A stretch of 64,000 bases of DNA from the sequence record ON210139.1; one strand, 5' to 3'. Positions 8,075 to 63,545 of the stretch are shown here, in pieces. Each line of letters begins with the position of its first letter. Positions within the stretch are counted from its first letter, which is position 1. The notes beneath the pieces are model-generated. The model was not told the DNA's origin and did no database searches. It worked only from the letters and a program-made list of their open reading frames with translations. Position numbers and translations under genes: made by a program. This stretch comes from Escherichia phage EC128.

Positions 8075-10054
8075 TTAACCTGCAAGACCAGTCAACTCAT
8101 CGAAATCTGCACCAGTAGCAGTCGCAACGAAGTTAAGTTGGATATAATTTATACTGCGTGCAGGTTGGATGTAGAATGTTGCAACAAACTCATTTCTATC
8201 AATTACTGACGGAGTGTTATTTGTTGTATCGCAAACTACACGATATTCATAAATTCCACCGAGAGCTTTAATTCCCTGTAAGTACTGGGCAGTTTCTGTG
8301 CGGAATGATGAACGAGTAAACGCATTGTTTAATTCGAACAAACGATATTTTGAACTACGTCCGATATTCGTTTTCAACATATTAAACAGACGACGAACGT
8401 TAATACGATCAAATGGAGAAGGAACAGAAGTAGCTGTTTTATCACCATACAATACGTAACCATCGCCACCTGTACCAGTTACCGGGTTGATAGCTTCTTG
8501 GTATAAACGGTCGCGCTGAGCCTGGCGAGTTTCAATAGCCAGTTTAATAACGTTAAGAATCTGACCACGATTATAACCAGCTGGAGACATCCAAGTCTGA
8601 GATACGTTATCAGTTCTTGCGCATAAACCAGCAATATCAGCTGCTAATGGAACCCAACGATTCACATCATTATATTTGTCATACTGATATTTGTAGTTAC
8701 CATCGATTGCTGCATAGGTTGAACTGATATTAAAGTTGTTATCAGTGTATGAACCTGCTGCAGTTCTCCAATTGACTAAGTTATCAACAGCACGAGTTAC
8801 AGGAATTCCAACTACAGTTTCACGCGGTGGTGAGCACAGTACTAAGCAATCTTGGCGAGCATCACCAATTGAAACGACGTGTTTTTGGACAGTAGATGCT
8901 GTTTCTAAAGATTCGCCGGCGCAAGAACCAGCAATAAACAATTGAACATCTACAGATTCACGGTCAGCAAAGAAGTCCCAAGCTTCCATCAAATCTCCTG
9001 CTGTTACTTCAGCATTTGATGATAATCCACCAGACAGAGTTAAAATTCCAGAGAAGCCTTCTGGCCAGTTTTGTGCAGTTGCAAAAATATATTCTGAACC
9101 ACCTTTTGCGAAAAAGTCATCGATATAGATGTTACTATCGTAAATATCTTTTTCACCACGCTTAGTTGAAAGAACAACGCTTTGAACAATAGCATCATTA
9201 CGACGAACTATAATAGCGTACTGTGAATCAGTTTGCGGTCCATATCCAAACACTGCCTTGGCAGTAGATGCACGAGTACCACCACCTGGATAAATTGGCA
9301 GTAATGCAGAAGCTCCTTTTGCATAGTCAGCTTTAGATACGATTTCAATTTCAATTTTATCGCCTAATTCGCCTGGATAAAGAGCTACTACTCCTGGAAT
9401 TCCGTATTTTTTAAGATTTGCTTGAAAGTCAACCGCTGTCATAGCAGCTTCAGCATTTTCAATTTCAGCTAATAAAATACCAGAATCAGTAATAATTTTT
9501 CCAAGAGTTATTACTGCGGCTAAACCAGAGGAAGACGAAGAAATTTCTGCAGTCCAGTTAGAACCTAATGTTGGGTATTCACCGACTTCTTTAGCTTTAG
9601 CGATAATTTTTGCAGTAGGAATATTAATTTTCTTAATTTTTCCATCTGCGTCTACTTCAGTAATTTTACCTTCAGTTTCAATATCATCTGAAACATATTT
9701 GACCGTGATTTTATCTCCAACTGCATAGTTACTACCTGGGGTAGAAATTGTGTATTCAATATTACCAGCAATCGGAGATGAGTTTTTAGCGGTATCTCTA
9801 TCAACAGCACGAACTACTCGTAAGTCATTTCCGTACTGTAAGAAATTCATCGCAGACATAAAATAGTCAGCAGTTTCAGCGGTTGGTTGACCAAAAGTAT
9901 TAACTAAATCTACTTCATTTGTAACCTGTTTAATCTGAAAAGCAGGACCCCACTGGAATTTACCGGCCAAAGCTGCTGTACCAGTAGAGTTATTAACCAC
10001 GGTGCTTTGAACCGTAGTTTCTTTGAGCTCAATGCCCGGAGATAATAAAGTCAT
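8075..10054 (-). CDS. 18: Contractile tail sheath protein gp18
   Basis: 659 aa ORF in the T4 position; length matches recalled T4 gp18. Confidence 0.95.
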   Translation of the reverse strand: MTLLSPGIELKETTVQSTVVNNSTGTAALAGKFQWGPAFQIKQVTNEVDLVNTFGQPTAETADYFMSAMNFLQYGNDLRVVRAVDRDTAKNSSPIAGNIEYTISTPGSNYAVGDKITVKYVSDDIETEGKITEVDADGKIKKINIPTAKIIAKAKEVGEYPTLGSNWTAEISSSSSGLAAVITLGKIITDSGILLAEIENAEAAMTAVDFQANLKKYGIPGVVALYPGELGDKIEIEIVSKADYAKGASALLPIYPGGGTRASTAKAVFGYGPQTDSQYAIIVRRNDAIVQSVVLSTKRGEKDIYDSNIYIDDFFAKGGSEYIFATAQNWPEGFSGILTLSGGLSSNAEVTAGDLMEAWDFFADRESVDVQLFIAGSCAGESLETASTVQKHVVSIGDARQDCLVLCSPPRETVVGIPVTRAVDNLVNWRTAAGSYTDNNFNISSTYAAIDGNYKYQYDKYNDVNRWVPLAADIAGLCARTDNVSQTWMSPAGYNRGQILNVIKLAIETRQAQRDRLYQEAINPVTGTGGDGYVLYGDKTATSVPSPFDRINVRRLFNMLKTNIGRSSKYRLFELNNAFTRSSFRTETAQYLQGIKALGGIYEYRVVCDTTNNTPSVIDRNEFVATFYIQPARSINYIQLNFVATATGADFDELTGLAG

Positions 10055-34141: not shown

Positions 34142-34838
<697 letters not shown>

Positions 34839-35274: not shown

Positions 35275-35460
35275 ATGAAACGTTGTGAATTAATTCGAAA
35301 TGTTGCTATTGCAATTTCTGCTTCTGCTTTTAGTTTTTCAATGTTTGTTGGATTTATATGTGGATTATTAACTACAGCAGAAAATGTGTTTTCACTTGTA
35401 GTAGCATTTTTAATTGGTTTAATCGCTATCGTTATGGATAAAATTTCTAAAGGTGAATAG
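35275..35460 (+). CDS. Small hydrophobic protein (two predicted TM segments)
   Basis: 61 aa ORF, GAGGAG RBS, hydrophobic stretches ISASAFSFSMFVGFICGLL and VVAFLIGLIAIV. Confidence 0.5.
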   Translation: MKRCELIRNVAIAISASAFSFSMFVGFICGLLTTAENVFSLVVAFLIGLIAIVMDKISKGE

Positions 35461-35461
35461 A

Positions 35462-35842
35462 ATGTATAAAGTGTATGCGGATTATCAGGCTAATCCATCT
35501 GAAAAGCCAGGTTGTCAAATTGGATGGGCTCATGATACTTTGCTTGAAGCAGTAGATGCTGCCCAAAAATTGGGATATAAATATGTAGAGATTGTTCAAC
35601 CGTCAGGAAAAGTTATTACTCTTGAAGAGTTCAATAATATTAAACCAAACTTTTTACTTTTTGCAGGTGATAATTATTATCCTCGTGGTGGATATGCTGA
35701 TTTAATCGCGAAAGCCGCTACCGAAGATGAACTTCGTGATATTATTAAAGAAAATGAAAATAAACCGATGTATGGTTCTAATCGTTTTGACTGGTGGCAA
35801 ATTGTAAATGCCCATACGCATACTATTGTTGATGAAGGTTGA
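35462..35842 (+). CDS. Hypothetical protein
   Basis: ORF with AGGTGA RBS before ATG 35462 (track start 35453 is 3 codons earlier). Confidence 0.5.
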   Translation: MYKVYADYQANPSEKPGCQIGWAHDTLLEAVDAAQKLGYKYVEIVQPSGKVITLEEFNNIKPNFLLFAGDNYYPRGGYADLIAKAATEDELRDIIKENENKPMYGSNRFDWWQIVNAHTHTIVDEG

Positions 35843-36229: not shown

Positions 36230-36302
36230 TGGGAATTAGCCAAGTTGGTAAGGCACTGGATTTTGATTCCAGGATGCAAAGGTTCGAGTCCTTTATTCCC
36301 AG
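36230..36302 (+). tRNA. tRNA-Gln (anticodon UUG)
   Basis: Cloverleaf with acceptor TGGGAAT/ATTCCCA, anticodon loop TTTTGAT, T-arm GGTTCGAGTCC. Confidence 0.85.
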
Positions 36303-36303
36303 C

Positions 36304-36390
36304 GCGAGAATGGTCAAATTGGTAAAGGCACAGCACTTAAAATGCTGCGGAATGATTTCCTTGTGGGTTCGAGTCCCACTTCTCGCACCA
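36304..36390 (+). tRNA. tRNA-Leu (anticodon UAA), type II with long variable arm, CCA encoded
   Basis: Acceptor GCGAGAA/TTCTCGC, anticodon loop CTTAAAA, long variable arm, T-arm GGTTCGAGTCC. Confidence 0.85.
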
Positions 36391-36395
36391 AATTT

Positions 36396-36469
<74 letters not shown>

Positions 36470-36479
36470 ATTTAATTTA

Positions 36480-36553
36480 CTCCGTGTAGCTCAGTTTGGT
36501 AGAGCGTCTGCTTTGGGAGCAGAATGTCGTAGGTTCAAATCCTGCCACGGAGA
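36480..36553 (+). tRNA. tRNA-Pro (anticodon UGG)
   Basis: Acceptor CTCCGTG/CACGGAG, D-arm TAGCTCAGTTTGGTAGAGC, anticodon loop TTTGGGA. Confidence 0.85.
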
Positions 36554-36555
36554 CT

Positions 36556-36642
36556 GGAGGCGTGGCAGAGTGGTTTAATGCACCGGTCTTGAAAACCGGC
36601 AGTCGCTCCGGCGACTCATAGGTTCAAATCCTATCGCCTCCG
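36556..36642 (+). tRNA. tRNA-Ser (anticodon UGA), type II
   Basis: Acceptor GGAGGCG/CGCCTCC, anticodon loop CTTGAAA, long variable arm. Confidence 0.85.
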
Positions 36643-36644
36643 TT

Positions 36645-36720
36645 GCTGATTTAGCTCAGTAGGTAGAGCAACTCACTTGTAATGAGAAGGTCGGCGGTTC
36701 GATTCCGTCAATCAGCACCA
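36645..36720 (+). tRNA. tRNA-Thr (anticodon UGU), CCA encoded
   Basis: Acceptor GCTGATT/AATCAGC, anticodon loop CTTGTAA, T-arm GGTTCGATTCC. Confidence 0.85.
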
Positions 36721-36721
36721 A

Positions 36722-36793
36722 GGCCCTGTAGCTGGAAGGTTCAAGCAAGCGACTCATAATCGCCAGATGGTGGTTCAATTCCACCCAGGGCCA
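36722..36793 (+). tRNA. tRNA-Ile (anticodon CAU, presumably lysidine-modified as in T4)
   Basis: Acceptor GGCCCTG/CAGGGCC, anticodon loop CTCATAA; T4 encodes a CAU-anticodon tRNA-Ile (established knowledge). Confidence 0.75.
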
Positions 36794-37503: not shown

Positions 37504-37580
<77 letters not shown>

Positions 37581-41354: not shown

Positions 41355-41839
41355 TTTTAAAAACTCGCTGGTATGATTTAGATGATGGGGATGATGGCAT
41401 TTCAGTTGATAGAGTTGACTGGAATGGTTGTTCCGAAGATATGAAAAATTTGTTGATTAGGGAGTTTAGAATGGGATATCAAGCAGCTAAGCCATTTACT
41501 GTAACAGATGATAAGTTCGTATGTATTCAAAACGGTCGCGCTAAGTTAACGAACGCTGATTGGTTCACAGATAAAATTATGATTCTGTGGTATATTATTA
41601 GTCTTCCTGTGACATCATTCGTATTTTGCTTCTTTGGAGAAAGTCCAATGGACAAAACAGGAGATTGGGTTATTTTAACCATACTTGTTAATATTTTTAC
41701 AGCAGCAATATTATCTGGGATATGGTACACGTTCATTGAAATGCCATGGCGTTTACGCAGACAGCAAAAGATTTTTGATGAAAAGAAATATACTCAAAAT
41801 TTAAATAACTTTATCACTGAATGCAGGAAATTAAAATGA
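41351..41839 (+). CDS. Membrane protein
   Basis: 162 aa ORF with two central hydrophobic helices. Confidence 0.5.
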   Translation: MILKTRWYDLDDGDDGISVDRVDWNGCSEDMKNLLIREFRMGYQAAKPFTVTDDKFVCIQNGRAKLTNADWFTDKIMILWYIISLPVTSFVFCFFGESPMDKTGDWVILTILVNIFTAAILSGIWYTFIEMPWRLRRQQKIFDEKKYTQNLNNFITECRKLK

Positions 41840-42276
41840 AAACACTATCAGCTGGTATTATCTTTATGACAGAAGATAAAGATTTATTCATGGGACGGGT
41901 TACTGGTTCTCGTAAGCCTGGAATGATGGCACATCGCTGGGATATTCCAAAAGGCCGTGTAGAAAATTCTGATTTGAGCGCACTAGATGCAGCACGAAGA
42001 GAATGCTTAGAAGAGACCGGTTTTAGCAATTATAATCCAGACCTTCTAGAAGACCTAGGTGTATTTAAATATTCTAGTAATAAAGACTTACAGCTGTTTT
42101 ATTATACGATTCCAGTAGAGCATGAGATGTTTAGAAATTGCCATTGCGAGTCTTATTTTGAAAATAAAGATGGTGTTATGATTCCAGAGATGGATGCTTT
42201 TGCTCTTATTCCTCGTACTCAGTGGCAATATGTGATGGGTCCTTCACTTTACCGAATAATGAACAGCCTCTTTTAA
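41821..42276 (+). CDS. nudE: Nudix hydrolase NudE
   Basis: 151 aa ORF with Nudix box (RRECLEETGF); directly upstream of e as in T4. Confidence 0.85.
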   Translation: MQEIKMKTLSAGIIFMTEDKDLFMGRVTGSRKPGMMAHRWDIPKGRVENSDLSALDAARRECLEETGFSNYNPDLLEDLGVFKYSSNKDLQLFYYTIPVEHEMFRNCHCESYFENKDGVMIPEMDAFALIPRTQWQYVMGPSLYRIMNSLF

Positions 42277-42807
<531 letters not shown>

Positions 42808-42811
42808 AGTT

Positions 42812-42843
42812 GTTTACTTTCTCCTAGAATTGTGATAGTATAT
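42812..42843 (+). promoter_or_regulatory. Early promoter for denV
   Basis: -35 GTTTAC, -10 TAGTAT with upstream TG, in the 59-nt gap between e and denV. Confidence 0.55.
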
Positions 42844-42866
42844 TCACAGTTACTTGGAGGGATAAA

Positions 42867-43283
42867 ATGACTCGTATTAATTTGACTTTAGTATCTGAAC
42901 TTGCTGATCAACATTTAATCGCAGAATACCGTGAATTGCCGCGTGTTTTTGGTATAGTTCGTAAGCATGTGGCAAACGGTAAGCGCGTTAAAGATTTTAA
43001 AATATCTTCTAAATTTATTTTAGGTTCTGGTCATGTTACTTTCTTTTACGATAAGTTAGAATTTTTGCGAAAGCGTCAATCGGACATTATAACGGAATGC
43101 TTAAAACGCGGGTTCAGTATAAAAGATACTGAAGTTCCTGACATCAGCGATATTCCAGTAGAATGGAAAAATGATTATAATCCATGCAAATCAGCTATTA
43201 AGTTGAGTCAACAACGACTCGATGAAAAAATTTTAATGAAGCCACACTGGTATAAGTATTACGGCAAAAATATTTACATTTAA
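42867..43283 (+). CDS. denV: Endonuclease V (pyrimidine dimer DNA glycosylase)
   Basis: 138 aa [20 protein letters not shown]...; recognised as T4 endonuclease V. Confidence 0.95.
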
Positions 43284-43380
43284 ATAACATGGGAATAACC
43301 TGGACCTCATGATTCTGTGAGGGATTCCCGCCAACCTGTAATAAGGTCGAGCCCAAGTGCGGTAATGGGTAAATACAGAA

Positions 43381-43968
43381 ATGGACAATTCATGCGCCAT
43401 GGAATGGCCCAAACCTAGAGATAACAAAATGAGAACATTTTTAACTGGTCCTTATCTATCCCTGATGAATGCTTTTACACACCATTCTGATGCTAGAGTA
43501 GAAGAAATTTGTAAAAACGAATATATCCCGCCATTTGAAGACTTACTTAAACAGTATTGCACACTTCGACTAGACGGTGGACGTCAATCTGGTAAATCAA
43601 TTGCTGTGACTAACTTTGCTGCTAATTGGTTGTATGATGGCGGAACAGTTATTGTTCTTTCTAATACTTCAGCTTACGCTAAAATTTCTGCAAATAACAT
43701 TAAAAAGGAATTTTCGCGTTATTCTAATGATGATATACGTTTTCGTTTATTTACTGATTCTGTACGCAGTTTTATTGGTAATAAAGGAAGCAAGTTCAGA
43801 GGTTTATCGCTTTCGCGAATTTTGTATATAATTGATGAGCCTGTCAAATCTCCTGATATGGATAAGATTTATAGTGTCCATATTGACACTGTACACTGCT
43901 GCTGTAATATTAAATGTTGTATTGGTGGTATTACTCGTCCACAGTTTTTCGTAATCGGAATGCAATGA
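43381..43968 (+). CDS. P-loop NTPase-like protein with C-terminal cysteine cluster
   Basis: Walker A GGRQSGKS and Walker B-like LYIIDE; C-terminal HCCCNIKCC; real start may be the internal Met at 43429. Confidence 0.5.
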   Translation: MDNSCAMEWPKPRDNKMRTFLTGPYLSLMNAFTHHSDARVEEICKNEYIPPFEDLLKQYCTLRLDGGRQSGKSIAVTNFAANWLYDGGTVIVLSNTSAYAKISANNIKKEFSRYSNDDIRFRLFTDSVRSFIGNKGSKFRGLSLSRILYIIDEPVKSPDMDKIYSVHIDTVHCCCNIKCCIGGITRPQFFVIGMQ

Positions 43969-44294
43969 TGACAGACACTCAGCTTTTCGAATATCTTTAT
44001 TTTTCGCCAAAAACTATTAAAAATAAATTGGTGAATCATTTTGAAATTTTGGCAAATAACAACGTCTTGAGCGAATTTTATCCTAAGCAATACAAATTAC
44101 AAAAAGGCGTATTCAAAGGATGTAGAGTTTTATGTACTGCTCCTAATGCACGGCTAATGAATAAAATTCCATATTTTACCATGGAATTTATTGATGGGCC
44201 TTTTAAAGGACTAATCACACAGAGTTTAATGGCATATGATTCTGAGCCATTTTTAATTAAAGAACAATCTTGGATAAATTTATTTTCTAATTGA
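43965..44294 (+). CDS. Hypothetical protein
   Basis: ORF whose ATG overlaps the upstream stop (ATGATGA); track start 43914. Confidence 0.45.
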
Positions 44295-44301
44295 GGTTTA
44301 T

Positions 44302-44664
44302 ATGAAAGCATATCAAATTCTTGAAGGCACACATAAAGGTACTATTTATTTTGAAGATGGTATTCAAGCACGAATTATCGTTTCTAAAACCTTTAAAGAG
44401 GACTCTTTTGTAGACCCAGAAATTTTCTATGGTTTGCATGCCCGTGAAATTGAAATTGAGCAACAGCCTACAGTTAAAATTGAAGGTGGTCAACACCTGA
44501 ACGTTAACGTTCTGCGTCGTGAAACTCTGGAAGATGCAGTTAAGCATCCGGAAAAATATCCGCAGCTGACCATCCGTGTATCCGGTTATGCAGTTCGCTT
44601 TAACTCTCTGACTCCGGAACAGCAGCGCGACGTTATCGCTCGTACCTTTACCGAGAGTTTGTAA
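44302..44664 (+). CDS. Autonomous glycyl-radical cofactor (GrcA/YfiD-like)
   Basis: C-terminus [29 protein letters not shown] matches the glycyl-radical signature of GrcA and pyruvate formate-lyase C-termini. Confidence 0.85.
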
Positions 44665-44885
44665 TGGCAAAGATAATTATTGAAGGTTCTGAAGATGTGC
44701 TAAATGCTTTCGCCGAATGGTTTAGTAATTCAGGCGAACAGCAATTTAACGAAGCATGGAACATGGGTGATATTAATGGAATTTATCCTACTACAGAAAT
44801 TTCTGTTCAGGGATATGGCATTCATGAACCTATTCGTTTAGTTGAATACGATTTATGTACTGGTGAGGAAGTCAAATATGATTGA
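44664..44885 (+). CDS. Hypothetical protein
   Basis: 73 aa ORF with start/stop overlap with neighbours. Confidence 0.5.
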   Translation: MAKIIIEGSEDVLNAFAEWFSNSGEQQFNEAWNMGDINGIYPTTEISVQGYGIHEPIRLVEYDLCTGEEVKYD

Positions 44886-45144
44886 AGATATTAAAGGTTA
44901 TAAGCCACATACTAACGAAAAAATCGGTAAAGTAAATGCTATTAAAGACGCTGAAGTTCGTTTAGGACTTATCTTTGACGCTTTATACGATGAATTCTGG
45001 GAAGCACTAGATAATTGCGAAGACTACGAATTCGCAAAGAATTATGCTGAAAGCCTCGATCAGCTAACTATTGCTAAAACGAAACTCAAAGAAGCTAGTA
45101 TGTGGGCTTGTCGCGCGGTATTCCAACCAGAGGAAAAATATTAA
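44878..45144 (+). CDS. vs.4-like small protein (candidate Acb2 cyclic-oligonucleotide sponge)
   Basis: Fifth ORF counting from denV toward regB, the vs.4 slot in T4; about 88 aa from the ATG after a GAGGAA RBS; assignment by position and size only. Confidence 0.45.
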
Positions 45145-45422
45145 TGGCTCAATTAAGCGCAGGGTTTGGTTATGAGTATTATACTGCCCCTCGTCGTGTA
45201 TCTGTTGCTCCTAAGAAAATTCAAAGTCTTGATGATTTCCAGGAAGTAATTCGTAACGCTTTCCAGGACTATGCGCGTTATCTTAAAGAAGATTCACAGG
45301 ACTGTCTCGAAGAAGATGAAATTGCTTATTATGAGCAGCGTCTTGAACAGCTTAAAAACCTACATGAGGTTCGTGCAGAAGTTACAAAGTCTATGAATAA
45401 ATTGATTAGATTTAAAGAATAA
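45144..45422 (+). CDS. Hypothetical protein (vs.3 position)
   Basis: 92 aa from [13 protein letters not shown]; track ORF starts upstream at 45102. Confidence 0.5.
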
Positions 45423-45424
45423 TT

Positions 45425-45455
45425 GTTTACTTTTCCTCTTGACTGTGGTATAATT
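45425..45455 (+). promoter_or_regulatory. Early promoter for regB
   Basis: -35 GTTTAC, extended -10 TGGTATAAT. Confidence 0.65.
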
Positions 45456-45481
45456 TTTCTATCAGTTAAGAGGAGAATAAC

Positions 45482-45943
45482 ATGACTATCAACACAGAAG
45501 TTTTTATCCGTCGAAATAAGCTCCGTCGTCACTTTGAGTCGGAGTTTCGTCAAATTAACAATGAGATTCGTGAGGCATCAAAAGCAGCAGGAGTCTCATC
45601 GTTTCATCTAAAATATTCTCAACATCTTCTTGATCGTGCAATTCAACGGGAGATTGATGAGACATATGTTTTTGAATTATTCCACAAAATAAAAGACCAT
45701 GTTTTAGAAGTTAATGAATTCCTGAGTATGCCTCCGCGTCCTGACATTGACGAGGATTTTATTGATGGGGTTGAATATCGTCCTGGGCGTTTAGAAATCA
45801 CAGATGGAAATCTTTGGCTTGGATTTACAGTTTGTAAACCTAATGCGAAGTTCAAAGACCCGTCACTTCAATGTAGGATGGCCATTATCAACAGTCGTCG
45901 TTTACCAGGAAAGGCTTCTAAAGCAGTAATTAAAACTCAATGA
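45482..45943 (+). CDS. regB: Endoribonuclease RegB
   Basis: 153 aa ORF, GAGGAG RBS; recognised as T4 RegB by sequence and length. Confidence 0.9.
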   Translation: MTINTEVFIRRNKLRRHFESEFRQINNEIREASKAAGVSSFHLKYSQHLLDRAIQREIDETYVFELFHKIKDHVLEVNEFLSMPPRPDIDEDFIDGVEYRPGRLEITDGNLWLGFTVCKPNAKFKDPSLQCRMAIINSRRLPGKASKAVIKTQ

Positions 45944-45950
45944 GGTAAGC

Positions 45951-46496
45951 ATGAGAAAAGCACTACTCGCTGGTCTATTGGCCATTTCTATGATGGCACA
46001 TAGCTCCGAGCATACTTTCAGTAATGTCCAACTCGATAACATGCGTTACGCGTATCAATTCGGGGAACAATTTTCCAAGGATGGAAAATATAAAACACAT
46101 AAAAATATCCACAAGAGCGGATTAGGTCATATAATGGCTGCTATTTTATGGCAAGAAAGCTCTGCCGGAGTTAATTTAAAATCTAAACCAAAGCATCATG
46201 CCTACGGAATGTTCCAAAACTATTTGCCGACCATGCGAGCAAGAGTTAAGGAACTTGGTTATAATATGACCGATGCTGAAATAAAAAGAATGTTGAATAA
46301 ACGGTCCAATTCAGCTTCCTGGGCGTACATTGAACTTTCTTATTGGTTAAATATACATAAGGGCGATATAAGAAAAGCAATATCCTCTTATAATTCGGGA
46401 TGGAATGTTAAAGCAGGTTCTAAATATGCTTCTGAAGTCCTAGAAAAGGCTAACTACCTTAAAAATAATAAACTGTTGGAAATAGTAAATGACTAA
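45951..46496 (+). CDS. vs.1: Secreted lytic-transglycosylase-like protein
   Basis: 181 aa ORF with N-terminal signal peptide MRKALLAGLLAISMMAHS and a QESS motif reminiscent of SLT-domain catalytic Glu; T4 vs.1 position. Confidence 0.6.
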   Translation: MRKALLAGLLAISMMAHSSEHTFSNVQLDNMRYAYQFGEQFSKDGKYKTHKNIHKSGLGHIMAAILWQESSAGVNLKSKPKHHAYGMFQNYLPTMRARVKELGYNMTDAEIKRMLNKRSNSASWAYIELSYWLNIHKGDIRKAISSYNSGWNVKAGSKYASEVLEKANYLKNNKLLEIVND

Positions 46497-46830
46497 AATT
46501 TTGGTTTTATGTGTAGGATTAATTTCATTTTCTGCGTTAGCAGATATATCATATTCTGAAGTTAGAGAGTATGTAAACCGTACTGCCGCGGATTATTGTG
46601 GGAAAAATAAAGCATGCCAAGCTGAATTTGCGCAGAAATTAATATATGCATATAAAGACGGAGAAAGAGATAAATCAAGCAGATATAAAAATGATACATT
46701 GTTAAAACGATATGCTAAAAAGTGGAATACTTTAGAATGTTCAGTTGCGGAGGAGAAAGATAAAGCCGCTTGTCATTCAATGGTTGACCGTTTGGTAGAT
46801 TCTTATAATCGAGGATTGAGTACTAGATGA
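46489..46830 (+). CDS. vs: Valyl-tRNA synthetase modifier-like protein with signal peptide
   Basis: 113 aa ORF with N-terminal signal-like MTKILVLCVGLISFSALA; T4 vs position and similar size. Confidence 0.55.
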   Translation: MTKILVLCVGLISFSALADISYSEVREYVNRTAADYCGKNKACQAEFAQKLIYAYKDGERDKSSRYKNDTLLKRYAKKWNTLECSVAEEKDKAACHSMVDRLVDSYNRGLSTR

Positions 46831-47306
46831 TTGTAAAATATATCAAGGGCGATATTGTCGCCCTATTTCTTCAAGGTAATATTATTGCGCACGGGTGTAA
46901 CTGTTTTCATACTATGGGTTCAGGTGTAGCGGGTCAATTAGCAAGGGCCTATCCTAAAATTTTAGAAATAGATAAAACCACTACCGAGTACGGTTCTCGT
47001 GATAAATTAGGCGATATGTCTATTGTTTTTAAACATAATCCTACAGGATTTGGTATATGCTATAACCTGTATACACAATACGAACCGGGTCCTAATCTTG
47101 ATTATGGTGCTTTAGTAAACTGCATGATAGAATTAAATCTACAGGCAGAGACTCTTTTGTTTAAACCAGTAATTTACATTCCACGCATAGGTTGTGGTAT
47201 TGCTGGCGGCGATTGGGATAAGGTTTCTAAATTAATCGACATGTTTACTCCTGATATTGATTTGATAGTGGTGGATTATGAAAGTACATTACCCGCATCC
47301 GTTTGA
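46827..47306 (+). CDS. Macro-domain protein (ADP-ribose binding / processing)
   Basis: N-terminal KGDIVA...IAHGCNCFHTMGSGVAGQLARAYP and C-terminal IPRIGCGIAGGDWDKV resemble macro-domain diphosphate-binding loops. Confidence 0.6.
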   Translation: MIVKYIKGDIVALFLQGNIIAHGCNCFHTMGSGVAGQLARAYPKILEIDKTTTEYGSRDKLGDMSIVFKHNPTGFGICYNLYTQYEPGPNLDYGALVNCMIELNLQAETLLFKPVIYIPRIGCGIAGGDWDKVSKLIDMFTPDIDLIVVDYESTLPASV

Positions 47307-47490
47307 TCCTAAAAACAAAGCGGAAATTATTCGTCAATGGGAACGCATTTGCCGTACTAAATGCCCAATTAATAGTCCTCATGATGTAGATAAAGACTAT
47401 ATTGGAACATTCGTTGAATATACCTTTATTGATAGGAAAGGTCGTAAACAACATGTAGAAGAATATTGCTTAAAGGTTACATGGTTATGA
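47278..47490 (+). CDS. Hypothetical protein
   Basis: 70 aa ORF overlapping neighbours. Confidence 0.4.
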   Translation: MKVHYPHPFDPKNKAEIIRQWERICRTKCPINSPHDVDKDYIGTFVEYTFIDRKGRKQHVEEYCLKVTWL

Positions 47491-47693
47491 GCCAAACTAG
47501 TATTCTTAAAAATGCCCATTGTGAAAATTGTAAATGGCCTGTTGTTTTTGCTTTATGTAATGATGAAATGGCCTGTGATTTTGACTATTGGTGCTATTGT
47601 TCTAATAAAGGATGCATCAATCATAAAGGTGAAGGATTTTATTCAGGATTTTATCCTTATCCTGATTTCGTTAAAGAAGGTAAACCAAAATGA
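47466..47693 (+). CDS. Cys/His-rich small protein
   Basis: 75 aa ORF with CENCKW...CNDEMACDFDYWCYCSNKGCINH metal-binding-like pattern. Confidence 0.45.
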   Translation: MLKGYMVMSQTSILKNAHCENCKWPVVFALCNDEMACDFDYWCYCSNKGCINHKGEGFYSGFYPYPDFVKEGKPK

Positions 47694-47863
47694 ATAATTT
47701 TGAGTTACAATATGAAGTGTTACGTGAACTTGATAATTTAATTGAACTCGCTGTTAATAAAGGTTTTGCCATTGGAATTGGTCAAAAAGATACTGATCAT
47801 TTAACTATGGAAATATTTAAGCAAAAACGAATTATTTTAAAACTTCTGGAAATTAATATATGA
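47690..47863 (+). CDS. Hypothetical small protein
   Basis: 57 aa ORF (below track cut-off) filling the gap, ATGA overlap with the next ORF. Confidence 0.35.
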   Translation: MNNFELQYEVLRELDNLIELAVNKGFAIGIGQKDTDHLTMEIFKQKRIILKLLEINI

Positions 47864-48045
47864 GTCTGAGCAAAGAACAAAAAGATAAATTGTTTGAGCT
47901 TATCCATGAACTTCTAGATGAGCATACAGAAGTAAACACCTTTTATGATGAATACGGCCCGCTATCTCCCGAACAGCAAGAAGAATTTGCTGACCGGTTT
48001 GATAAGAAAGAAAACGAATTAATAGCTTATGTGAATACGCTTTAA
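47860..48045 (+). CDS. Hypothetical acidic protein
   Basis: 61 aa ORF. Confidence 0.4.
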   Translation: MSLSKEQKDKLFELIHELLDEHTEVNTFYDEYGPLSPEQQEEFADRFDKKENELIAYVNTL

Positions 48046-48054
48046 GAAGGTGAT

Positions 48055-48636
48055 ATGGCGAGTTTAATTTTTACTTATGCGGCAATGAATGCTGGAAAAT
48101 CTGCTTCTCTTTTGACTGCTGCACATAATTATAAAGAACGCGGAATGAGTGTATTAGTTCTTAAGCCTGCTATTGATACTCGCGATTCTGTCTGTGAAGT
48201 CGTTTCTCGCATTGGAATTAAGCAGGAAGCGAATATTATTACGGATGATATGGATATTTTTGAGTTCTATAAATGGGCTGAAGCACAAAAAGATATTCAT
48301 TGTGTATTTGTAGATGAGGCCCAGTTTTTAAAAACTGAACAGGTGCATCAATTAAGCCGAATTGTTGATACATATAATGTTCCTGTTATGGCTTATGGGC
48401 TAAGGACTGATTTCGCTGGAAAATTATTTGAAGGTTCTAAAGAACTTTTAGCGATTGCAGATAAACTTATTGAACTAAAAGCAGTTTGTCATTGCGGCAA
48501 AAAAGCGATTATGACAGCTCGATTAATGGAAGATGGAACACCAGTTAAAGAAGGTAATCAAATCTGTATTGGTGATGAAATTTATGTTTCTTTGTGTAGA
48601 AAACATTGGAATGAATTAACTAAAAAGCTCGGTTAG
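48055..48636 (+). CDS. tk: Thymidine kinase
   Basis: 193 aa ORF with P-loop AAMNAGKSASLL and C-terminal CHCGKK...C zinc ribbon typical of type II thymidine kinases. Confidence 0.93.
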   Translation: MASLIFTYAAMNAGKSASLLTAAHNYKERGMSVLVLKPAIDTRDSVCEVVSRIGIKQEANIITDDMDIFEFYKWAEAQKDIHCVFVDEAQFLKTEQVHQLSRIVDTYNVPVMAYGLRTDFAGKLFEGSKELLAIADKLIELKAVCHCGKKAIMTARLMEDGTPVKEGNQICIGDEIYVSLCRKHWNELTKKLG

Positions 48637-48645
48637 TGCAAAAGT

Positions 48646-48653
48646 TATAAATA
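48646..48653 (+). promoter_or_regulatory. Late promoter (TATAAATA)
   Basis: TATAAATA upstream of the 48679 ORF and rI. Confidence 0.5.
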
Positions 48654-48678
48654 GGTTTATCTAACTAAAGGGGTATAT

Positions 48679-48891
48679 ATGCTACAATTAACTGAAAAGC
48701 AACTTCGCAATCTTACTGTTCTTCAATTAGATGAAATTCGTAGGGAAGTTGGAAATATCATTTCAGCTTTGCGTCGAGAAGTATCACTCAACCAATCTCC
48801 GGCAGACTATACTAGATTGCGAAATTTTGAAAAATACCTTGATAAAGTTAAGGCCGTGCACCGGCACAAAGTAAATACAGGACAAAAATGA
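48679..48891 (+). CDS. Hypothetical protein (rI.-1 position)
   Basis: 70 aa ORF between tk and rI. Confidence 0.5.
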
Positions 48892-62333: not shown

Positions 62334-62807
62334 ATGTTATTGACTGGCAAATTATATAAAAAAGAAAAACAGAAATTTTATGATGCACAAAATGGTAAAT
62401 GCTTAATTTGCCAACGAGAACTAAATCCTGACGTTCAAGCTAATCACCTCGACCATGACCATGAATTAAATGGACCAAAAGCAGGAAAGGTACGTGGATT
62501 GCTTTGTAATCTATGCAATGCCGCAGAAGGTCAAATGAAGCATAAATTTAATCGTTCTGGCTTAAAGGGACAGGGTGTTGATTATCTTGAATGGTTAGAA
62601 AATTTACTTACTTACTTAAAATCCGATTACACCCAAAATAATATTCACCCTAACTTCGTTGGAGATAAATCAAAGGAATTTTCTCGTTTAGGAAAAGAGG
62701 AAATGATGGCTGAGATGCTTCAAAGAGGATTTGAATATAATGAATCTGACACCAAAACACAATTAATAGCTTCATTTAAGAAGCAGCTTAGAAAGAGTTT
62801 AAAATGA
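62334..62807 (+). CDS. 49: Endonuclease VII (Holliday junction resolvase)
   Basis: 157 aa ORF with zinc site CLIC...CNLC and HNH-like NHLDHDHELNG; recognised as T4 gp49. Confidence 0.93.
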   Translation: MLLTGKLYKKEKQKFYDAQNGKCLICQRELNPDVQANHLDHDHELNGPKAGKVRGLLCNLCNAAEGQMKHKFNRSGLKGQGVDYLEWLENLLTYLKSDYTQNNIHPNFVGDKSKEFSRLGKEEMMAEMLQRGFEYNESDTKTQLIASFKKQLRKSLK

Positions 62808-63341
62808 CAATTGAAAAAGAAATTGAAGGATTGATTCATAAAACTAATAAAGACCTTTTGAACGAGAATGCTAATAAAGATTCTCGTGTTTTTCCAACTC
62901 AACGGGACCTTATGGCTGGTATTGTGTCTAAACACATTGCCAAAAATATGGTCCCGTCTTTTATTATGAAAGCGCATGAAAGCGGAATTATCCATTTCCA
63001 TGATATTGATTATTCCCCTGCTCTTCCATTTACTAATTGCTGTTTAGTAGATTTAAAAGGAATGCTTGAGAACGGATTTAAGCTCGGTAATGCACAGATT
63101 GAAACTCCTAAATCAATTGGCGTTGCTACTGCAATTATGGCACAAATTACTGCACAGGTTGCTTCCCATCAATATGGCGGAACGACTTTTGCGAATGTAG
63201 ATAAAGTACTTTCTCCTTATGTTAAACGCACCTATGCAAAACATATTGAAGATGCAGAAAAATGGCAAATCGCCGATGCGTTGAATTATGCTCAATCTAA
63301 AACAGAAAAAGACGTATACGATGCATTCCAAGCTTATGAGT
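62804..63341 (+). CDS. nrdD: Anaerobic ribonucleoside-triphosphate reductase NrdD, exon 1 (interrupted by a group I intron)
   Basis: Frame open from MTIEKEIEGL to 63349; proposed 5' splice site after U63341, where exon UAUGAGU can pair with intron GCUCAUG (P1 with terminal U-G). Confidence 0.75.
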
Positions 63342-63545
63342 TAACGTAAGTCAAGCTCATGTAAAATCTGCCTAAAACGGGAAACTCTCACTGAGACAAT
63401 CCGTTGCTAAATCAGCGGTAGCTGTAAATGCCCAACGACTATCCCTGATGAATGTAAGGGAGTAGGGTCAAGCGACCCGAAACGGCAGACAACTCTTAGA
63501 GTTGAAGATATAGTCTGAACTGCATGGCGACATGCAGCTGTTTAT

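Follow-up and report, generated by a model that had tools for sequence, protein, structure and literature searches.

The vs.4 locus and its gene neighborhood

The stretch of DNA analyzed here (64,000 nucleotides from Escherichia phage EC128, sequence record ON210139.1; referred to below as the window) carries at positions 44878..45144 of the plus strand an open reading frame that starts with an ATG at 44878, ends with a TAA at 45142-45144, and encodes an acidic protein of 88 amino acids and 10.3 kDa. By homology, it is the coding sequence of acb2/vs.4, a cyclic-dinucleotide sponge of the T4 type. Our reading of the sequence placed a Shine-Dalgarno-like GAGGA on the same strand (44865..44869), 9 nucleotides 5' of the ATG and within the 3' end of vs.5. 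The same motif precedes the gene in T4 and T2, and we infer that it is the acb2 ribosome-binding site. A TTG at 44842, which would give a product of 100 amino acids, was rejected as the start codon because the crystallized T4 construct starts with MIEDIKGY and because GAGGA serves the ATG at 44878; T4 Vs.4 and the 115 homologs that we aligned all begin with M(x)IEDIKGY. Open reading frames that overlap the region in other frames or on the minus strand, among them 45071..45175 and 44730..44825, have no support and lie inside conserved coding sequence. The GC content of acb2 is 36.7%, compared to 35.8% for the window. Judged from its sequence, the acb2 reading frame is far beyond what chance would produce, and we regard a chance open reading frame as excluded.

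The gene lies in a tightly packed run of plus-strand genes that extends over ~41.8 to 48.6 kb of the window, and the 5.6 kb around it is ~97% identical to many T4-like coliphages. To map this run, we used tblastn with T4 proteins, which placed, all on the plus strand, nudE (from 41821), e (42313..42807), denV (42867..43283, with the match itself spanning 42867..43277), vs.8, vs.7, vs.6 (from 44302), vs.5 (from 44664), vs.4 (44878..45141), vs.3 (from 45144), regB (from 45482), vs.1, vs, tk.4, tk.3, tk.2, and tk. The gene order from nudE to tk is that of T4, except that ipII and ipIII are missing between e and denV. This map confirms the placement in the original prediction, which had put the reading frame in the vs.4 slot as the fifth one from denV toward regB.

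The genes around acb2 overlap at their junctions, by 1 nucleotide at vs.6/vs.5, by 8 nucleotides at vs.5/vs.4, where the acb2 ATG precedes the end of the vs.5 stop codon (vs.5, 44664..44885), and by 1 nucleotide at vs.4/vs.3, where the acb2 TAA shares a base with the vs.3 ATG (vs.3, 45144..45422). Because of these overlaps, we suggest that acb2 is cotranscribed and translationally coupled with its neighbors. A scan of positions 41500..48800 for promoters and terminators found no more sites than in shuffled sequences (24 promoters, compared to 28.6 expected). Since promoter-like sites are no more common than chance predicts, the scan gives no indication of a dedicated acb2 promoter or of the timing of acb2 expression. 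The only well-placed site is a sigma-70-like one on the plus strand (45426..45454; TTTACT, a 17-nucleotide spacer, TATAAT, and an extended -10 TG) in the 59-nucleotide gap between vs.3 and regB; the block from vs.6 to vs.1 has no other intergenic gap. This site would drive regB and not acb2. A GC-rich, T4-conserved stretch upstream of and within vs.8 (43284..43400) gave no signal of RNA structure (fold z-score of +0.57) and no Rfam match.

Several neighbors of acb2 differ from their T4 counterparts. The vs.5 gene (44664..44885, plus strand) is an uninterrupted reading frame of 73 amino acids, whereas the T4 reference has a 1-nucleotide deletion ~50 nucleotides into the gene that results in the annotated 58-amino-acid Vs.5, ending 36 nucleotides before vs.4. 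When the 73-amino-acid protein was used as a tblastn query, at least 80% of it was covered in 986 of the 987 matching phage records, down to ~45% identity; the matches listed are single uninterrupted pieces, while the total may also contain loci assembled from separate pieces. The T4 reference vs.5 thus looks like a frameshifted exception. Vs.5 matched no Pfam family. Two Vs.5 proteins (P0007 and P0015) fall into the 90% cluster of Vs.4, but a relationship between Vs.5 and Acb2 was rejected on the basis of a BLASTP E value of 0.39, and their presence in one cluster is probably an artifact of the clustering. Farther upstream, vs.8 (43317..43968, plus strand) is missing 8 bp at ~43422 compared to T4. 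As a result of this deletion, the T4-type N terminus (GTG, 43317..43418, 33 amino acids) is cut off from the remainder of vs.8, which is open from an ATG at 43381 or 43429 to 43968, so that vs.8 is here either 5' truncated or has its true start at an internal ATG (MRTFLTG...).

Between e (42313..42807) and denV (42867..43283) there are 59 nucleotides (42808..42866) in the place where T4 has ipII and ipIII. Amid neighbors that are 97 to 100% identical to T4, mosaic islands that have diverged from it lie at 42867..43283, 46827..47306, 47860..48045, and 35447..35839; denV shares 78% amino acid identity with T4, the tk.4 macrodomain protein (Pfam Macro, E value of 5.8e-8) 58%, tk.2 54%, and trna.3 56%. 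T4 tk.1 had no tblastn match on the window, and two extra small reading frames (47466..47693 and 47690..47863) fill the interval between tk.3 and tk.2.

Identity of the acb2 product

The original prediction had named the reading frame at 44878-45144 as a candidate Acb2 from its position and size, and had proposed alignment to characterized Acb2 as a check. We ran this comparison with phmmer against all PDB chains. The best match was chain 7uq2_A ("Vs.4"; E value of 3.6e-55), with 86 of 88 residues identical over the full length, followed by two sequence sets of the PaMx33 Acb2 (p26) with E values of ~0.06. Likewise, tblastn of T4 Vs.4 against the window gave 97.7% identity over 88 amino acids (44878..45141). 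The only Pfam match of the window protein was to PF24729, the Acb2/Tad1 hairpin (Acb2_Tad1_hairpin), with a score of 69 bits (gathering score, 27), and its PHROGs match was phrog_717 (5.3e-32), the family that Jenson et al. (2023) used to collect Vs.4 homologs (PMC10097602). A profile built from the 115 homologs also reached the PaMx33 Acb2 (p26; 8IXZ and 8H2J) at ~1e-4. An AlphaFold2 monomer model made from the 115-homolog alignment (pLDDT of 88.4) folds as a hairpin of two helices, which span residues 13 to 45 and 50 to 81. In a Foldseek search of this model against the PDB, the 7UQ2 chains ranked at the top (E value of 3e-11, TM score of 0.79), followed by the PaMx33 Acb2 structures 8H2X and 8H2J (TM scores of 0.73 to 0.75). 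Sequence, profile, and fold therefore all bear out the candidate. The window reading frame is almost certainly the vs.4/acb2 gene of a Tequatrovirus, or T4-like coliphage, and its product an ortholog of the Acb2 sponge; no result of our analysis speaks against this assignment.

As such, it is an already known entity, the ortholog of a structurally and genetically characterized protein at its canonical locus. The exact 88-amino-acid protein has been deposited as URO83746.1 of Escherichia phage EC128, labeled "hypothetical protein," and falls into a 90% cluster made up of 373 Tequatrovirus proteins. A search for contigs encoding precisely this product gave no match, so its origin is assigned from the identical deposited protein. 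DNA similar to acb2 is present in 487 phage records, and the majority of database records label this gene a hypothetical protein. What our analysis adds is a confident acb2 name for a gene mostly recorded as hypothetical, which matters mainly for annotation, and the predictions of CBASS evasion and Panoptes sensitivity described below; it opens no new biological question.

The closest characterized relative, T4 Vs.4/Acb2 (NP_049728; PDB 7UQ2; PMC10097602), has the same length of 88 amino acids and likewise sits 5' of regB, flanked by vs.5 and vs.3. The two share their ligand-contact, helix-cap, hexamer-interface, and trinucleotide-excluding residues, and their genes have the same ribosome-binding site and join vs.3 through the same TAATG. 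They differ by two substitutions (E13N and C50Y from T4 to the window), by 17 nucleotides, and by vs.5, which is intact in the window and shortened in the T4 reference. The Acb2 of PaMx33 (gp26/p26; 8H2X, 8H2J, 8H39, and 8IXZ-8J8O; Huiting et al. 2023; Cao et al., PMC10312549) shares with the window protein the hairpin fold and the Pfam family. Its Y11 corresponds to the stacking tyrosine Y8 of the window protein and its K26 to K23, and by homology the two would have in common a hexamer with three dinucleotide sites. Sequence identity between them, in contrast, is only ~22 to 24%, and the PaMx33 protein has two further pockets, which hold cA3 or cAAG through R67, T74, and a kinked helix, whereas the window protein has D61 and the residues of the unkinked T4 type.

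Binding-site residues, ligand range, and selection

In the T4 structure, Vs.4 forms a hexamer that binds three molecules of 3',3'-cGAMP, one in each of the pockets that lie between pairs of protomers; Y8 and F82 stack the bases, Y8, H11, K23, and R79 supply hydrogen bonds and salt bridges, and L29, F33, A66, A73, and A77 form the hexamer interface (PMC10097602). The substitutions T12I, S74N, and A77I cause loss of T4 Vs.4 activity (PMC10097602). When we compared the window translation to T4, the ligand residues Y8, H11, K23, S74, R79, and F82 were all retained, and all five interface residues were identical. None of the loss-of-function substitutions T12I, S74N, A77I, F82C, and Y8A is present. 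Across the 115 homologs, Y8, H11, K23, A66, S74, R79, and F82 are invariant. The two positions that differ from T4 vary in the family. At position 13, the homologs have, among others, D (81), E (21), K (7), and N (2), and at position 50, in the hypervariable region of the hairpin tip, they have E, D, H, S, Q, M, T, or Y. In close Tequatrovirus alleles, position 13 is D, E, or N and position 50 is C, D, Y, or F. Since E13N directly follows the T12 helix cap and lies two residues from H11, it might conceivably alter affinity or selectivity to a modest degree.

At the DNA level, the window acb2 and T4 vs.4 differ at 17 of 267 positions (93.6% identity), which fall into 15 codons, 13 of them with synonymous and 2 with nonsynonymous changes. 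A hand calculation from these codon-difference counts gave a pS of ~0.28, a pN of ~0.014, and an omega of ~0.04. The excess of synonymous changes and the low omega indicate that acb2 is under strong purifying selection.

The T4 Acb2 binds 3',3'-cGAMP with a dissociation constant of ~30 nM (PMC10097602) or ~84 nM (PMC10312549). It binds the same set of dinucleotides as the PaMx33 Acb2, but neither cA3 nor cAAG (Cao et al., PMC10312549). The exclusion of trinucleotides has been attributed to D61, which corresponds to R67 of PaMx33, to the unkinked helix, and to clashes from Y37, A57, L60, D61, and T64; a D61R mutant of the T4 protein still failed to bind cA3, the geometry of the helix being the limiting factor (PMC10312549). 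The window protein keeps Y37, A57, L60, D61, and T64, as well as T68, all in the T4 state. At the positions that mark the dual-pocket type (PaMx33 and JBD67), it has D61 in place of R67 and, as in T4, T68 in place of T74. Because all of the T4 residues that exclude cA3 are unchanged, binding of trinucleotides by the window protein is not expected, and an assay with cA3 or cAAG should be negative. The original prediction spoke of a sponge for cyclic oligonucleotides and proposed binding assays with both di- and trinucleotides; for this subfamily, both the wording and the trinucleotide part of the assay go too far.

We considered whether E13N, C50Y, or both could have broadened or shifted the ligand range relative to T4, either toward trinucleotides or toward discrimination against 2',3'-c-di-AMP. 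Acb2 homologs do vary in their binding spectrum (PMC10312549, PMC12393519), phages have been proposed to be able to tune Acb2 specificity away from this decoy (PMC12657218), and position 13 is next to two residues of the binding loop, T12 and H11. However, the trinucleotide-excluding residues and the T68/D61 pair described above are those of T4, the D61R mutant gained no cA3 binding, and both substituted positions vary freely among close Tequatrovirus alleles, position 50 being in the region where the family varies most. In the model, position 50 is at the tip of the hairpin, at the start of helix 2 and at the opposite end from the ligand-contacting termini, which would put it well away from the pocket, as read from the monomer model and not from a measured distance. 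We therefore consider a shifted range very improbable. The same low likelihood applies to the specific case in which E13N and C50Y weaken binding of 2',3'-c-di-AMP and keep that of 3',3'-cGAMP, making this a naturally "tuned" Acb2; if it were true, such a protein would escape the dilemma between CBASS and Panoptes.

Less probable still are two readings in which the gene does not act on CBASS signals at all. One is that the protein is directed at Thoeris and sequesters 3'cADPR, as ten Acb2 homologs act against type I Thoeris and Acb2_43 has 3'cADPR as a ligand (PMC12393519). Tad1 and Thoeris-directed proteins such as Acb2_43 do share the PF24729 hairpin and the sponge principle with the window protein, but they bind gcADPR or 3'cADPR with other pocket residues and extra beta-strands (PMC12393519, PMC10680739). 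In Acb2_43, additional N- and C-terminal beta-strands are present, L6, V7, H5, K19, and K55 replace the tyrosine stack, and CBASS is not inhibited (PMC12393519). The window pocket is instead of the CBASS type, with Y8, F82, and K23 kept in a protein 97.7% identical to T4 Vs.4, a proven cGAMP binder. The other reading, about equally improbable, is that the allele has decayed and is nonfunctional, as in T2 or PaMx41, where natural loss of acb2 function is documented and is expected under pressure from Panoptes (PMC12657218). The T2 lesion was confirmed in our analysis. In T2 (NC_054931, T2_122, 8591..8875), which has the same locus and near-identical DNA 3' of codon 8, a 2-nucleotide deletion in codons 7 and 8 (GGTTAT to GG--AT) removes the MIEDIKGY N terminus including Y8, and the annotated Vs.4 product starts with LKILRDKPHT and is without the ligand-stacking Y8. 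This deletion is consistent with the reported escape of T2 from Panoptes, and T2 acb2 has been described as probably disrupted in its dinucleotide site (PMC12657218). In contrast, the window acb2 does not have the T2 lesion; its frame is intact from a canonical ATG to a canonical stop codon, its ribosome-binding site is kept, it has none of the known loss-of-function substitutions, and the 13:2 ratio of synonymous to nonsynonymous codons points to continued selection.

Predicted function, acb1, and other features of the window

Acting as an ortholog of the T4 sponge, the window Acb2 would be expected to work as its T4 counterpart does. Six interlocked protomers would make up a hexamer. It would have three pockets, every one of them formed between the N- and C-terminal tails of a pair of protomers and occupied by one cyclic dinucleotide, with Y8 and F82 stacking the bases, Y8, H11, K23, and R79 bonding the ligand, and S74 nearby. 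The protein would thereby bind 3',3'-cGAMP, with an affinity in the range of tens of nM, as well as dinucleotides related to it, and would leave them undegraded. With the signal sequestered, CBASS effectors such as the phospholipase CapV would not be activated, and with CapV-type effectors silent, the infected cell would not kill itself before the phage has finished. In T4, knockout of vs.4 led to an ~50-fold loss of titer on Cap2-mutant CBASS cells (PMC10097602).

The same binding capacity may come at a cost. T4 Acb2 binds 2',3'-c-di-AMP at ~62 nM, which triggers the Panoptes (OptSE) defense (PMC12657218). By homology, the window Acb2 should also bind this decoy, making the phage visible to Panoptes hosts. 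Because the T4 protein triggers OptSE in this manner, an intact allele like the window acb2 should be a liability on Panoptes hosts, and EC128 is predicted to be sensitive to them.

A second gene directed at CBASS is found ~10 kb away from acb2 in the same window. The acb1 gene (gene 57B; 34380..34835, plus strand) is separate from acb2, its product matches T4 57B at 99.3% identity over 152 amino acids (tblastn), and it belongs to Pfam family PF23474 (Acb1; E value of 2.7e-60, 202.7 bits compared to a cutoff of 27). Acb1 and Acb2 share the purpose of removing CBASS signals but are unrelated; Acb1 is an enzyme that degrades cyclic nucleotides, while Acb2 sequesters them. T4 encodes both proteins (PMC10312549), and EC128, like T4, carries both a predicted degrader of CBASS signals (acb1) and a predicted sponge (acb2). 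Together, the two genes predict resistance of EC128 to most CBASS systems that use cyclic dinucleotides. Predictions of CBASS evasion and Panoptes sensitivity would help in the selection or engineering of T4-like phages for therapeutic use.

Two further groups of features in the window involve RNA. An Rfam group I intron (RF00028, 98 bits) is present on the plus strand at 63306..63537 and begins at the end of the reading frame at 62804..63349; the window ends before the exon downstream of it. From our own reading of the sequence, we take this reading frame to be the N-terminal part of nrdD (anaerobic ribonucleotide reductase) and the intron to be the T4 nrdD/sunY intron. Eight tRNA genes lie on the plus strand, those for Gln, Leu, Gly, Pro, Ser, Thr, and Met(CAT) at 36230..36793 and a separate one for Arg(TCT) at 37504..37580. 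The gene with the CAT anticodon occupies the position that is annotated as tRNA-Ile in T4, and its CAT is presumably lysidine modified.
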